Source of the DNA: Leucoraja erinacea | Lineage: Eukaryota | Length of the DNA stretch: 64,000 nt | Assembly (NCBI RefSeq): GCF_028641065.1 | Contig: NW_026576674.1 | Span: forward strand, 186,001-250,000 | Direction of reading: 5' to 3' | In this document: piece after piece, positions 2,498 to 54,103 of the stretch | Position numbering within the stretch: the stretch's first letter is position 1 | Layout: each line of letters starts with the position of its first letter | Translations under genes and position numbers: made by a program | The notes under the pieces: generated by a model | Database searches by the model: none | The model's input: only the letters and a program-made list of their open reading frames with translations | What the model was told of the DNA's origin: nothing

Positions 2498-2567
2498 ATG
2501 AACGGGCCGGTCGTCAACCAGATCGAGAACGTGTTCTACCCAATCCTTGTCACCATTGGTGTTCCTG
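2498..2567 (+). CDS. GPCR-1 coding exon 1 (MNGPVVNQIENVFYPILVTIGVP), GPR139/GPR142-like orphan class A GPCR
   Basis: ATG at 2498, 70 nt, donor G|GTAAGC; phase 1 joins in frame to the exon at 5298 (VP-A-NLL); paralogous 70-nt exons at 14532, 41531 and 54034. Confidence 0.9.
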
Positions 2568-3779
2568 GTAAGCCCTTTACCTTTTTCTGACGATATTTCG
2601 CCGTCTAAACTTTACTGTTAAAACTAGATGTGCTATTACTTATTGCTTAAGTAACTAACATAATTATTGACATCTAAAATCTAAAATACACAATCGCATC
2701 TATGGCGGGGAGATACAGTGCGGTGTAGACAGGCAGATTAGTTCAAGTTATCCAAGCTTCTCATTCACTCCTTGAGGACGAAGGAACATTTTACGGCGCC
2801 GAGTTTACCTACAAACCCGCACTATTTCGGATCAGGGAAGAATCGGTACCACCTGGAAGAAACTGACACGGGGACATGCAGAACGTGTAAGATTCACACA
2901 GACAGGGTTGGTCTCTGCTGGCTTTCTATGTTCCATGACCCTGAGTGTTATATGTACCGTGATCGGAAAAGGCTATCGTCATGTTATTAGACATCAGCAA
3001 TTAATCTATCGATTTTCATCCCAAGGAGATACACTCGATCCCCCGCCACGGCACATGTGCTGATGGCCTCATATTCATCGGTTCTGTCAGTCGACCACTA
3101 ATTAACATGTGCCCGCCGTTGTTGTGTGATATCAATATGTAGCTGGTCCACATGTTTCTGAATCCATTGACGGTGTTGACAGAACCAGGCATGTAATAAT
3201 TCTCCATCGCCAAATCGAAGTGAACTGATAGCGAATTAGGTGAATTCACCGCTACGATATAGAAGGCGGCAGGTTCGGCCCATCTGGCTTTTGTCGCGTC
3301 CAACTGCAATTGGAATTAATGGCTGATTTTGCTTATCACATGTTCTTCCAAATGTCCCCAACTTTTCTGCCAGAGGCCAATGCTGTGCCGGCATCGTGTT
3401 TGGATTAGTATCCGCATGTAGAAGGACACAGGAGCTGCGGGCTCGTGTTTGTGAATCACAGCGACGGAGACCGGGAGTGATCTTGACCTCCAACGTTTCC
3501 CGGGTGGAGTTTGTACGTTGTTCTCGGGACCAGGTTGATTACTTTAGTTTCCTCCGCATCCCAGAGATCAGAGAGTTAAATAGTAAGTTAATAATAATTA
3601 GTTTTCAAACACAACCCGTGTTGGTAAACTGGATTCTGTCATTGCTTCCACTGTGCAGGGAGTGCATGCGATTGTTGGAAAAATGGAACTGGTGACAACG
3701 GGTGATAAATGATCGGCAGGTCGGTGTGCTGGGGAACTATTATCATGCTGTATCAATCAGTCAATCTATCAAAAGCACA

Positions 3780-4690
3780 ATAAGGCAACGTAATGAATGC
3801 AAAGCAAAGCAGACGTTGATGGCAAGGCTTTGACCAACGCAGGGGAAGGCATTGAAGGTAATGCATTAGAGGCAAGGCATTGATGGCATGATATTGAAGG
3901 CAAGTCAAGGACTCGAATGCAATTCATTGCAGTCAAGGAGACACATTGGCGGGAAGACTTTCATATGAAGAAAGACTGGATAGACTCGGCTTGTACTCGC
4001 GAGAATTTAGAAGATTGAGGGGGGATCTTATAGAAACTTACAACATTCTTAAGGGGTTGGACAGGCTAGATGCAGGAAGATTGTTCCCGATGTTGGGGAA
4101 GTCCTGAACAAGGGGTCACAGTTTAAGGATAAAAGGGAAATCTTTTAGGACTGAGATGAGATAAACATTTTTCACACAGAGTGGTGAATCTCTGGAATTC
4201 TCTGCCACAGAATTTAGTTGAGGCCAGTTCATTGGCTATATTTAAGAGGGAGTTAGATGTGGCCCTTGTGGCTAAAGGGGTCGGGGATATGGAGAGAAGG
4301 CAGGTACAGGACACGGAGTTGGATGATCAGCCGTGATCATATTGAATGGCGGTGCGGGCTCGGAGGGCCGAATGGACTACTCCTGCACCTATTGTATATG
4401 TTCCTATGTTTCTAAGACGAGGCAGGCGTTGATGTTTAGGCTTTTACGGCAGCATAAGGGAAATCATCGAAGGCAATGCATTAAATGCAAGACGTCATTG
4501 AGCGTGCGCATTAAAGGCAAAGCCAGGCAAGGCATTGAATGCAATCCTTGACGCCAAGGCAATGAATTGCAGGGGAGGCAAAGCAGGGCATTGAAAGCAA
4601 AGCAAGGCAATGAATGGAATTCAATGGCAATGCATGGCATTGAATTCAAAGGCAAGGTATGGCATTGAAGGGAAGGCAAGGTATTGAACC
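3780..4690. repeat. Degenerate GGCAAGGCATTGAA-type low-complexity array, interrupted by a CR1 fragment
   Basis: Repeated ggcaa/ggcattgaa units at about 3780-3950 and 4415-4690; homologous arrays at 13190-13330 and 16560-16740. Confidence 0.7.
3955..4412 (+). mobile_element. CR1 3' fragment (family B) in GPCR-1 intron
   Basis: YEERLDRLGLYS-type sequence and 3' end gaatggcggtgc...ctatgtttct. Confidence 0.9.
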
Positions 4691-4839
4691 TACACTGAGA
4701 AGGTGCAAACTCCACACAAACAATTCCAGCATTCAGTATCGAACCTGGGACGCTGGAGCTATCAGGATTGCTCTCCATTTGCTTTGAGGGAAAAGGATGG
4801 TAAGAATTGTACGTCTTGTAAAGCAAATTGGGCCGGAGA

Positions 4840-5080
4840 TTACACAGAGAGTGGTGAATCTGTGGAATTATCTGCCACAGAAGGTAGTTGAGGCCAGTTC
4901 ATAGGCTATATTTAAGAGGGAGTTAGATGTGGCCCTTGTGGCTAAAGGGATCAGGGGGTATGGAGAGAAGGCAGGGATGGGATACTGAGTTGGCTGATCA
5001 GCCATGATCATATCAAATGGCGGTGCAGGCTCGAAGGGCCGAATGGCCTACTCCTGCACCTATTTTCTATGTTTCTATGT
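4840..5080 (+). mobile_element. CR1 3' end (family B)
   Basis: Near identical to 12080-12320, with (TTCTATGT)n tail. Confidence 0.9.
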
Positions 5081-51926: not shown

Positions 51927-52119
51927 CTGAAGGAAGAACAGCAATGCAATTGAATTAATATTTGAATGGAACCACTAATGTAATGGAATTAAGATTATGT
52001 TTGGGGGCTACAAGAAAGCATGAAGGGGTCAGATACGGTGAATGGACAAGAGCCACATGATATCGAGTTCGAGTTGAGAATAAATGGGGCAATTGGGGTC
52101 AAATCTATTTTATTGGGGT

Positions 52120-52375
52120 GTCTTGTTCCACGAGTCCGTCTGGGTGGAATGGAGAGTACAGAACAGCACGGTCTTGTGGAAGAATAAAGCGAAGTCGGCG
52201 TCACATCCCAAGTGTGGTTCCAGGCCACTGCCGCGCCAGTTTCTTGGGTTTACTAATAGTCCCGATTAAATATTTAAGCGCGTTCTCCACTTCCTGTCTG
52301 AACGCACTCTGGATCATCCTATAGATACACGCGTTGGCACACGGGCTGATGGGTGTAAGCAAGGGATGTACTTAA
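52120..52375 (-). pseudogene. Collapsed GPCR paralogue fragment (TM7, C-terminus and 3' flank) inside GPCR-5 intron
   Basis: Translates as LLTPISPCANACIYRMIQSAFRQEVENALKYLIGTISKPKKLARQW; homologous to 50935-51165. Confidence 0.85.
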
Positions 52376-54033
52376 CATGAAGCTTTACCACAGAGAGGGC
52401 GGGTAGTGTAGGGACCGGGCTGGCAGATGAGGTATTTAAGGTAGATAATAAAACAACATTTGAAACGCATTTGGAGAAATTCGAAGACAGGAATGGTTCC
52501 GACAAATATGAGCTAAAGCGTGCCAATGGGACAAGTGTAGATGGGGGATCTTGGACGGAATGAACAAATTGGACCGAAGGCTCTACTTCCGCTCTGTATT
52601 ACTTTATGAATGATGACACTCAACGAGACGGACCACGAAAGGCGCTCAATTGGAATTCAAAGCGTTCGTTGCGGCACGTCATTCAATACCACTTTGTACA
52701 GACAGAGTGAATATATCAGATTCATTTAAAAAACAGTGTAATCATGTCGCCAGTCCCAAAATACTTTCCAAACTCCAATATAAGACCATCAATCTGAAAA
52801 TAAATCTCTGTATCTTTGCACGCCAAGAAAAAAAATAAACAATCTGTAAACAGGCTTTAGGTCCAAGAACTCAATCTGAAAAATGCTCCCGCTTTAGCTC
52901 CAAGACTCATCATCTGGACTGACGGTGACCATCACAGATTGAATGGTCTTTGATCTGAAACACCAACCCGTGATCTGCCCCTTTCTCTTTTCTAGCACAT
53001 CCTATTTCGATTTCAGGTTTAGGTAGTTTCCCGCGTTCTATTTAAACCACTTCAATTTCACCTTCTGCTCGTTAAAATCATTTTGGTTTCGTTATCAATC
53101 AAAATGGCAAGCAGAGAGAAAACGAAGGGATCTGGATAACTGAAATGGGAAAGTTGTTGCTGAAAATACTCGGGCTGCATCTGACGGAGAGTGAGAGGAG
53201 ATGCAACATTTCAGTGGACTCGCTTTACGATGCAGTGAAGAGGGTGGCGTTGGAGACATTTAAGTAGTGCCTGCGTTTACAACCAACAAGAGAGCCCGAA
53301 TAGACGGAAGCAGTCGTGCTGTCTGGGCGAGGATGAAGGTTTATTATTGGCTGGAGATAGTGGAGGAGGACAGTACACAGACGGCAGATTAAGATTCCTT
53401 CACCTTTGTCTCACTTGTCACCAACTTGTACCCCACAGTCACCACTCGCCTACTAGTTAACTCTCAACTACAATATGTTGGAAGCAGGAATAACTGCAGA
53501 CGCTGGAGTAGTTCACCCGGACATGGCATCTGAAGAAAGATCCCGACCCGAAACGTCGGCTATCCTTGTCCGCCACAGATGCCGCATGACCCGCTGACTT
53601 ACCCCAGCACTTTATGATCCATTGTAATGTTCTCGGTCTTTTTACAAACACTTCCTTATCAATGTCTCCTTCTCCGGCGCTACAGACCCGTGAACCCCAC
53701 CATCCTTGAATTTCTGATCTCTTGAAAAACTCATCAGTTTAGTTATTGCAATATTCCGTTCTTCGGAGAGTGAAGTTCCCATTTACCCCCCATTTACGAA
53801 GCTGCTTTCGTTCAACCCGCTGTCCAGCCGTTCTACGTCTATAGGAATATATTCTATTCTGTTCCCTGACCATATGATTGTGAATTGCGACGCTACGGCG
53901 ATACGTATTTGGATGATTTAACTCTACTGATCGGAGTACAGTTTGTTGTAGTGTAGGGATTACGTCAAAGTACTCACGCCCTGTAGAGTTGAAACAGACC
54001 AGCAACGCATTAAGCGACACAATCACAGCTTAC

Positions 54034-54103
54034 CAGGGATACCAAACGCCGCCAGGATCGGATAGATGATTTCATTGACGTACAGAATTGCCGCCCGTCC
54101 CAT
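54034..54103 (-). CDS. GPCR-5 coding exon 1 (MGRAAILYVNEIIYPILAAFGIP)
   Basis: ATG at 54103, 70 nt, donor G|GTAAGC, in frame with the exon starting at 51926. Confidence 0.9.

Follow-up and report, generated by a model that had tools for sequence, protein, structure and literature searches.

GPR139, a neuropeptide receptor of the brain (PMC12287315), is encoded by a two-exon gene and shows 70% identity between human and zebrafish (PMC7318219). Three sets of GPR139/GPR142-related genes in coelacanth, gar and fishes have been described as the orphans GPR210A/GPR210B (Rinne et al. 2019, PMC6504862); that study contains no mention of "shark" or "cartilaginous" and reports no expansion. The FMRFamide-receptor-like clade comprises about 450 genes in the snail Lymnaea, and subfunctionalisation was proposed for this expansion (PMC11589774). 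Cartilaginous fishes have been described as GPCR-poor (PMC8455134), and their olfactory repertoires, with 20 to 62 genes in sharks, as the smallest among vertebrates (PMC10869828). Analysis of a 64,000-nucleotide stretch of the Leucoraja erinacea genome (the window) revealed four genes, A to D, which very probably belong to a large family expanded in sharks and rays from a single orphan class A GPCR; this receptor, a relative of GPR139/GPR142, has one copy in amphibians and sterlet. No earlier description of this expansion was found in the literature.

The models of the four genes were re-derived, and all proved to be intact two-exon class A GPCR genes without internal stops, as an earlier note on this DNA had claimed (Table 1). 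Each has a GTAAG donor, a CAG acceptor and a phase-1 intron in TM1, placed between P and A of G[VLI]PANxL. A scan of both window strands for ATG plus 67 nt plus GT[AG], ending in GxP, returned four sites, which are exactly the first exons of A to D. The exon 1 models are supported by the equal N-terminal length of RefSeq homologues, in which the Pro of the TM1 motif is position 23 in 94 of the 108 family proteins with a readable motif. The intron of gene C contains a 142-N gap, so the pairing of its exons is putative. Gene C also has Gly at 2.50, a position occupied by Asp in 251 of 255 family rows. DRF, NT[FC]IY and RGKCGL are present in all four proteins, and an N-terminal sequon is present in none, which agrees with the earlier note. 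So does the division into two divergent subfamilies: A and B are 89% identical, C and D 78%, and the identity across the pairs is 42 to 43%.

Table 1. Positions of the receptor genes, gene remnants and conserved upstream words in the window.
Feature	Position	Strand	Remark
Gene A, coding exon 1	2498..2567	+	70 nt, phase 1
Gene A, coding exon 2	5298..6205	+	from mid-TM1 to the stop codon; 325 aa after splicing
Gene B, coding exon 1	14532..14601	+	70 nt
Gene B, coding exon 2	17087..17997	+	spliced protein 326 aa
Gene C, coding exon 1	41531..41600	-	70 nt
Gene C, coding exon 2	37489..38381	-	spliced protein 320 aa
Gene D, coding exon 1	54034..54103	-	70 nt
Gene D, coding exon 2	51010..51926	-	spliced protein 328 aa
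Pseudogene: A/B-type exon 2, 5' half	13770..14169	+	in-frame stop and deletions; ends at junction
Fragment: TM7/helix 8/3' end of C/D-type gene	52120..52364	-	within gene D intron
Gene A, conserved upstream word TGTTTGTTYAAR	2355..2366	+	
Gene B, conserved upstream word	14362..14373	+	
Gene C, conserved upstream word	41738..41749	-	
Gene D, conserved upstream word	54241..54252	-	

One pseudogene and one fragment had also been reported; both are present, and their description was refined. The pseudogene corresponds to the 5' half of exon 2 only, carries a TAG at 13880 and deletions around 14085 to 14105, and its junction leads into the upstream region of gene B. Its exon 1 was not found, and an N gap (12841 to 13186) lies upstream of it. 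The fragment is a 79% copy of gene D's own 3' end. About half of the window is multi-copy sequence. A PRY-SPRY terminal exon is located inside the cluster, between the A/B and C/D subfamilies; the window contains no RING or B-box exon for this gene and no tRNA genes. The conserved upstream word TGTTTGTTYAAR, which we take to be forkhead-like, is among the words kept across subfamilies whose synonymous sites are saturated. Scanning for O/E, homeodomain, ETS and RUNX words revealed no pattern common to all four promoters. A relaxed O/E-like palindrome occurs upstream of A and B only.

Pfam 7tm_1 was matched by all four window exon 2 proteins at 66 to 76 bits and by all 31 alignment members above the cut-off, and R3.50, Y7.53, F8.50 and seven TM helices place the proteins in class A. 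The AlphaFold model of the homologue P0014 (pLDDT 85.6) has seven helices and helix 8. Fold comparison ranked oxytocin, opioid, vasopressin and orexin receptors top with Z values of 27.8 to 28.6, tied within 1, and aminergic receptors at about 27; it gave no separation of receptor classes, and its best 50 rows did not include GPR139. C3.25 was found in 246 of 255 rows and the ECL2 Cys in 240 of 255. These residues and a predicted ECL2 hairpin would suit a peptide-type pocket.

Assignment to several established receptor families was rejected. Olfactory receptors (OR) typically carry an N-terminal sequon, which is missing here, and Pfam 7tm_4 was matched by 0 of 4 window and 0 of 31 alignment proteins at E<=0.01. 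TAARs and aminergic receptors are characterized by Asp at 3.32; this residue is Asn in A/B and Arg in C/D, and Leu, Ile, Ser and Asn are commonest in the family. V1R/ORA and T2R were dismissed, as no Pfam V1R or TAS2R match was obtained at E<=0.01. OR, TAAR, V1R/ORA, T2R and V2R/OlfC do resemble the family in their birth-and-death evolution, their dispersed tandem clusters and the combination of a variable pocket with a conserved signalling face, but they are of other ancestry, and the family has no Pfam match to them at E<=0.01. The invertebrate FMRFamide-receptor-like and nematode Srw expansions belong to the same deep receptor clade, according to atlas features and a review, and expanded independently; the atlas look-alikes of the family include Srw-bearing invertebrate clusters. 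However, these receptors are only about 25% identical to the family and, as the chosen outgroup of the trees, lie outside the vertebrate clade, and the function of these expansions is itself mostly inferred.

Searching for homologues revealed a large family. Among the matches listed, its clade includes 21 named shark and ray species. All 113 of the best 120 matches to gene B that bear a species name are from sharks or rays, as are 99 of the best 120 rows of a second homologue listing. Distinct near-full copies among the matches listed amount to at least 41 in Heterodontus (on 13 sequences), at least 38 in Heptranchias and at least 26 in each of Rhinoraja and Pristiophorus. Clustering at 50% identity yielded 122 clusters with E<1e-30, of which 2 are repeat artefacts. 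Deep subfamilies are common to sharks and rays, and species-specific blooms and pseudogenes occur within the family. The sequences indicate that copies were formed by tandem duplication and then decayed to pseudogenes, in line with the proposed birth-and-death family of high copy number. The proposal that the family is lineage-specific holds for the expansion but not for the origin, a single-copy sister gene being present in amphibians and sterlet. Most homologues are named "probable G-protein coupled receptor 139" by NCBI, a name also given to two other distinct lineages; by homology, the family is a large shark-ray receptor group under a wrong automatic name.

Phylogenetic trees comprised no true GPR139 or GPR142 sequences, and the FMRFamide-receptor-like/Srw relatives served as outgroup. 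Support was 100/94 for the family and 100/99 for the family plus the amphibian/sterlet gene, and a mixture-model tree gave SH-aLRT values of 92 and 99 for these two nodes. The AU test spoke against a grouping of the family and a second single-copy lineage (p=0.010). These trees identify the single-copy amphibian/sterlet gene as the sister of the family. Among the matches listed, all 20 amphibians have it as a single cluster, and it also occurs once in sterlet. Like the family, its proteins, also named "probable GPCR 139" (P0220, P0389, P0464), have the TM1 Pro at a distance of 23 to 25 residues as well as C3.25 and W6.48, and their ICL3 contains the D-x-E...R motif. Their pocket is near-invariant, and they keep P6.50 and a basic residue at 6.51, both lost in the family. 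Three bony-vertebrate-type GPR139-related lineages were recovered beside the family (the P0223 clade, the P0220/P0464 clade and P0247). The bony-fish relatives may be the "GPR210" orphans, a correspondence that is a lead only, suggested by compatible taxon patterns; the GPR210 identifiers ENSLACP00000014196, 19189 and 15589 were not found in the supplement searched.

The single-copy relatives also show which features of the window proteins are inherited. A short N-terminus was found in 18 of 18 readable amphibian proteins and in most proteins of the other single-copy lineage; in the latter, a non-homologous leader precedes AN in 11 of 30 unspliced contig proteins, and exon 1 was present in 0 of 30. 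Both single-copy relatives have the same minimal, sequon-free N-terminus and likewise lack the NPxxY Pro, and DRF and the TM1 break point also occur in the second, more distant one. Because single-copy relatives have these features, they are inherited and not sensory signs. A short N-terminus was accordingly rejected as an indication of a sensory role; judged by its distribution, this trait, like the NPxxY loss, is ancestral and uninformative on sensing.

Comparison of the family profile with solved structures revealed human GPR139 as the best match (83.2 bits), followed by the next receptor at 60.7 bits. The same order was obtained with the single-copy relatives (53.2 versus 39.8 and 70.4 versus 43.9 bits). 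When single window proteins were compared with the PDB, the PrRP and motilin receptors outranked GPR139, so the kinship is seen only with profiles and slower-evolving relatives. On the profile evidence, GPR139 is the closest characterised receptor of the family, and the suggested relation to GPR139/GPR142 is upheld. Both share G.PAN in TM1, a two-exon gene, W6.48 and the absence of Pro from the NPxxY position, and the TM1 intron of GPR139 presumably occupies the same position. It is nevertheless scarcely conceivable that the family simply represents GPR139 orthologues, which is what its database name implies. That name and the profile ranking speak for orthology, but the name spans two other lineages, and orthology was rejected on identity: gene D and human GPR139 are about 25% identical (about 63 of 250 pairs, counted by hand), against the 70% between human and zebrafish (PMC7318219). 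GPR139 is single-copy and highly conserved, whereas the family has tens of copies. Of the six residues of the GPR139 agonist pocket (E108, F109, H187, W241, R244 and N271), the family keeps the Trp alone (249 of 255) and varies at the remaining five, which have no conserved equivalents. In the amphibian orthologue F109, W241 and N271 are matched, and Lys replaces R244. The family also has DRF where GPR139 has DRY, and C3.25 where GPR139 has no Cys in the alignment.

Among paralogues, the intracellular face is conserved and the orthosteric pocket is variable. In a family subclade with 59% mean identity, mean entropy was 1.77 at 38 pocket positions, 1.05 at other TM positions and 0.79 at cytoplasmic positions (p=1.5e-6), whereas a single-copy control with 56% identity gave 0.83, 1.01 and 1.00. 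Pocket positions also differed from outer-half non-pocket positions in the family (p=0.009), and the control ran in the opposite direction. The pocket of the single-copy orthologue is almost invariant (entropy 0.10). This pattern bears out the earlier suggestion of an evolution like that of sensory or immune repertoires, and the family is likely to be a ligand-diversified receptor repertoire, as judged by these substitutions. Within the window, dN/dS is 0.33 for A/B and 0.20 for C/D, a purifying selection which indicates that the genes are functional; positive selection in the pairs was rejected on these values, and the B/D comparison is saturated at synonymous sites. Pocket codons gave 0.07 in A/B and 0.15 in C/D. 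Constraint on the A/B pocket codons thus exceeds the average, so recent duplicates show no ongoing diversification of the pocket.

The evidence indicates that one ancestral gene was multiplied in sharks and rays and that its ligand pockets diversified. We propose that the paralogues signal through a common G-protein pathway, probably a PLC-linked one in analogy to Gq-coupled GPR139, but differ in their ligands, the ancestral ligand having been an aromatic amino acid or a short peptide. In the least certain step, the receptors would respond to peptides or amino-acid derivatives that are external and soluble in water, with microvillous olfactory neurons, taste cells or solitary chemosensory cells as candidate sites of action. 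That the family is an unrecognised chemosensory repertoire sensing external ligands is the leading, though tentative, reading, with a probability somewhat below even, which is favoured by copy number, pocket diversity, the small canonical repertoires and the FMRFamide-receptor-like/Srw parallels. It is weakened by the selection results in the pairs, the PRY-SPRY exon, which fits an immune-gene neighbourhood equally, the brain role of GPR139 and genome-size scaling. The catshark olfactory neurons, reported as a V2R-dominated microvillous population (PMC10116579), also count against it. In the same animal, the "brain and olfactory epithelium" top-50 list contains no GPCR (PMC11979771), a weak test for sparse receptors. 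The search for expression of the family gave no matches in three little skate supplementary files or in 12 of 24 whale shark supplementary files.

The same hypervariable pocket, of peptide type, would also fit a host-defence repertoire of granulocytes, mast-like cells or barrier epithelia for sensing peptides from microbes or from damage, as modelled on the mammalian FPR and MRGPR clusters. The PRY-SPRY exon and the reported lack of MAS1 and its relatives in sharks (PMC8455134), which leaves this niche free, point in this direction. This role is nonetheless unlikely: the window pairs are free of positive selection, and a GPR139-named gene is absent from the main text and one small supplement of a nurse shark spleen study and from two supplementary files of a single-cell comparison of immune cells across species, both weak tests. 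Ancestry within the GPR139/FMRFamide-receptor clade, subfamilies common to sharks and rays, and the low pocket entropy of the single-copy orthologue, which suggests a fixed endogenous ligand ancestrally, would suit receptors for endogenous peptides or metabolites in brain, gut, gonad or kidney, subfunctionalised after duplication, for which GPR139, a dynorphin and Trp/Phe receptor, is the model. However, tens of paralogues with pockets of different chemistry would require as many matching endogenous ligands, and species-specific blooms and pseudogenes are unusual for hormone receptors, which makes this alternative rather improbable. Largely neutral proliferation, with redundant copies arising by unequal recombination in a repeat-rich genome and the pocket relaxed, would account for the multi-copy half of the window and for the pseudogene-to-B junction and the intronic fragment, which resemble recombination products; tandem copy number in batoids rises with genome size (bioRxiv 2025.06.08.657570). 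It is very unlikely in view of the dN/dS values, including that of the C/D pocket codons, the subfamilies kept across sharks and rays and the upstream words conserved despite synonymous saturation.

If the chemosensory reading is correct, the family might even be a further vertebrate chemoreceptor family from the GPR139/FMRFamide-receptor lineage, rivalling or exceeding V2R/OlfC as the largest shark-ray chemosensory repertoire, a doubtful but consequential extension. It would parallel the Srw-type invertebrate expansions of the same lineage and help explain the keen chemical senses of sharks and rays despite 20 to 62 canonical receptors. Whatever its role, a class A family of at least 26 to 41 copies per species among the matches listed alters the GPCR count of sharks and rays. 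An immune or endocrine role would still make it an entire orphan receptor system; if it is sensory, how sharks smell well with few receptors becomes testable. Through the single-copy Xenopus orthologue, the ancestral ligand and cell type become tractable.

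Six-frame translation of the window revealed four long GPCR-like frames surrounded by LINE remnants. Both strands were scanned for 70-nt exons that open with ATG and end in GxP, with a GT donor next; four sites were returned, and splicing each exon to the downstream frame (introns GTAAG...CAG, 2.1 to 3.1 kb) gave open proteins of 325, 326, 320 and 328 aa. The genes are designated A and B (plus strand) and C and D (minus strand). DRF, NT[FC]IY and RGKCGL are present in all four, and an N-terminal sequon was found in none of the four. The earlier note's description of four genes, a pseudogene and a fragment was accurate. 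Protein identity is 89% between A and B, 78% between C and D and 42 to 43% between the pairs. Homology to the upstream region of A restarts 15 bases past the pseudogene, at the beginning of the B unit, and this boundary looks like an unequal-recombination junction. Residue 54 of gene C, in exon 2, is Gly in place of Asp2.50 (Asp in 251 of 255 family rows); the sodium sensitivity of this receptor may be changed, or the gene may be in decay.

Features of the receptor cluster and its surroundings, in window positions
Feature	Position	Strand	Remarks
Paired words TGTTTGTT then CTGGAG	2355-2427, 14362-14435, 41687-41749, 54189-54252		constant order, all four genes
Pseudogene, 5' half of A/B-type exon 2	13770-14169		stop at 13880 and deletions
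Reverse-transcriptase-like frame, long and open	15503-16201	+	within gene B intron; presumably a LINE type other than the abundant CR1-like copies
PRY-SPRY (B30.2) open frame	30175-30783	+	Pfam PRY and SPRY above cut-off; between the GPCR subfamilies
31-bp minisatellite, 12.8 copies	36728-37124		roughly 360 bases 3' of gene C
Gene C exon 2	38381-37489	-	
Reverse-transcriptase-like frame, long and open	42481-43461	+	presumably a LINE type other than the abundant CR1-like copies
206-aa frame	59997-60614	+	presumably resembles a Penelope-type GIY-YIG endonuclease region
Fragment, 79% copy of gene D 3' end			within gene D intron

Pfam 7tm_1 was the only match at E<=0.01 in all four proteins. It was found in 31 of 31 family alignment members, with a weak additional Srx match in 4 of the 31. 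Searching with the gene B protein revealed 2,129 matches at E<=1e-5 among 4,409 candidates, not all of which need belong to the family. The best 120 of these 2,129 comprised the window's own protein, six contig proteins and 113 named proteins; the named ones are all from sharks and rays (16 species) and mostly labelled "probable G-protein coupled receptor 139". The closest named proteins among the matches listed, from the skate Rhinoraja longicauda, are 82 to 88% identical, which points to a skate as the probable source of the window. A second search added five species, giving at least 21 shark and ray species among the matches listed; no chimaera was present among the 240 matches listed. Distinct copies were counted as near-full-length proteins of <97% identity among the matches listed, all counts being lower bounds. 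Heterodontus has at least 41 (41 of 41 listed, on 13 sequences, 12 of them >10 Mb), Heptranchias at least 38 (38 of 43), Rhinoraja at least 26 (26 of 28) and Pristiophorus at least 26 (26 of 26). The receptor gene expansion proposed earlier is thus borne out by at least 26 to 41 listed copies in each of four species. An exhaustive search gave 122 clusters (50% identity, E<1e-30), including two repeat artefacts. Publicly available A/B-subfamily models (P0001-P0009; 276 to 278 aa) begin at an internal Met in TM2 and lack exon 1 and TM1; genes of this subfamily are therefore truncated in annotations. The expansion is real and extends beyond the window, with good support for what the genes are and for how they evolved.

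Comparison of the family profile with 465 PDB sequences placed human GPR139 at the top (83.2 bits; next 60.7), and both single-copy relatives likewise ranked it first; it was not top-ranked in PDB searches with single window proteins. Gene D shares about 25% identity with GPR139 (hand count from the alignment), against 70% between human and zebrafish GPR139 (PMC7318219), which upholds the claim that these genes are not GPR139 orthologues. Trp is the only one of six GPR139 pocket residues (listed in PMC7318219) kept by the family, and the amphibian orthologue matches three, with Lys in place of Arg244. Cys at 3.25 (246 of 255 family rows) is absent from GPR139 in the alignment. A Cys in ECL2 is present in 240 of 255 rows, and ECL2 of the family homologue P0014 is a two-strand hairpin in the predicted model. 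GPR139/142-related orphans, GPR210A and GPR210B, have been described in coelacanth, gar and fishes from a set without cartilaginous fish (Rinne et al. 2019; PMC6504862). The family is probably an elasmobranch expansion of one GPR210-type lineage.

Among the matches listed, the single-copy amphibian/sterlet gene (newt representative P0220) appears as a single cluster in each of 20 amphibian species, together with one relative from sterlet; teleost orthologues could exist beyond these matches. In its amphibian rows position 2.50 is Asn and position 1.50 is Ser, and the gene is a candidate for de-orphaning in Xenopus. The more distant lineage (coelacanth representative P0223) has orthologues in sharks, sturgeon, teleosts, amphibians, turtles and squamates, mostly one per species; none from birds or mammals was present among the named matches listed (best 120 of 145). 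It is also mislabelled GPR139 and is a distinct conserved GPR139-like orphan; two entries are fused with TMEM183A models, hinting at TMEM183A as its neighbour. Because its pocket is almost invariant, this lineage probably has an endogenous ligand of its own.

Trees were generated with FastTree (206 rows), IQ-TREE LG+G4 (63 rows) and a mixture model (40 rows) after exclusion of rows with short profile coverage (82 of 389; 86 of 341 family rows). The root was four invertebrate-like proteins of our choice. True GPR139 and GPR142 are absent from all trees. The family formed one clade in all three (100/94 in IQ-TREE LG+G4; SH-aLRT 92 in the mixture tree), with the amphibian/sterlet gene as its sister (100/99 and 99, respectively). 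An alternative placing the other single-copy lineage next to the family was rejected (AU p=0.010). A and B grouped among eight Rhinoraja paralogues, and C and D fell in a distant subclade, their closest stored relative being 58 to 59% identical. Sharks and rays are intermixed within subfamilies, in which species-specific blooms also occur; this indicates that the expansion began before the shark-ray split and is still ongoing.

Thirty-eight class A pocket positions, which we take to be the generic ligand pocket, were compared with other positions using numbering from alignment anchors, that of TM4 being approximate. Mean entropy in 114 family representatives was 2.51 for the pocket, 1.49 for other TM positions and 1.06 for the cytoplasmic face. 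A divergence-matched subclade (82 rows, 59% identity) gave 1.77, 1.05 and 0.79 (p=1.5e-6), the single-copy control (48 rows, 56% identity) 0.83, 1.01 and 1.00, and the amphibian gene 0.10, 0.47 and 0.53. Against outer-half non-pocket positions, the family pocket excess was smaller and persisted (p=0.009 and 0.002), the controls reversed, and the family-minus-control difference was 0.92 versus 0.19 bits in 20 subsamples (largest p 0.0014); all these p-values are indicative because positions are non-independent and rows related. Charge differs between A/B and C/D at 3.28, 3.32, 5.42 and 7.36. A/B have a dN/dS ratio of 0.33 and C/D one of 0.20, with no rise at pocket codons within either pair (0.07 and 0.15), whereas dN between B and D is 1.28 in the pocket and 0.26 in the cytoplasmic face. 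These values suggest that specificity diverges from one subfamily to the next and is retained inside each. A variable pocket above a conserved cytoplasmic face would fit many ligands and one signalling route.

Judged from sequence, the family may encode receptors for external chemosensing, although we put this at somewhat below an even chance. The short N-terminus was discarded as support, being ancestral and the same in the single-copy relatives: all 18 readable amphibian proteins (18 of 18) have TM1 Pro at 23-25, none with an N-terminal sequon, and in the other lineage it lies at 23-26 in 38 of 55 proteins, with one sequon. Single-copy relatives also show [DE]RF, an NPxxY motif that has lost its Pro and the break in TM1. 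The sensory reading is likewise not supported by catshark work: the top-50 brain/olfactory list contains no GPCR (PMC11979771), and olfactory neurons of the catshark are reportedly microvillous, with V2Rs predominating (PMC10116579).

A role in host defence is plausible at about one chance in four, the points in its favour being the PRY-SPRY exon inside the GPCR cluster and the MAS1 relatives reportedly missing from sharks (PMC8455134). This exon probably forms the 3' end of a gene of TRIM or butyrophilin-like type, and the 64-kb window yielded neither a RING nor a B-box exon for it. Binding of endogenous ligands is rated slightly lower still; GPR139 itself is a Gq-acting brain receptor for dynorphin peptides (PMC12287315). 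Neutral proliferation of copies is the least probable of these readings. External chemosensing is the preferred, tentative role.

Upstream of the genes, TGTTTGTTYAAR occurs four times in 64 kb, once 140 to 170 bases before each ATG of A-D (0.09 expected), and is then followed by CTGGAG. The pattern was picked after viewing the sequences, and the promoters are homologous. Under a joint-shuffle null, 11 to 22 of 5,000 trials produced a shared 8-mer. Synonymous sites are saturated between the subfamilies, yet TGTTTGTT, which we take to resemble a forkhead site, and CTGGAG are retained. The sharing of TGTTTGTTYAAR suggests common regulation in one cell type, which the word does not name.

A full-text literature search, with subscription journals mostly outside its scope, found no published account of the expansion. 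The GPR139 mention in PMC12294341 is unrelated, and a batoid tandem-cluster survey (bioRxiv 2025.06.08.657570) does not name the family in the passages covered, while its figure labels or supplements may list it. The genes are present in public annotations, so specialists may be aware of A-D-type genes. The finding means that a GPR139-related orphan receptor became a repertoire-scale family.
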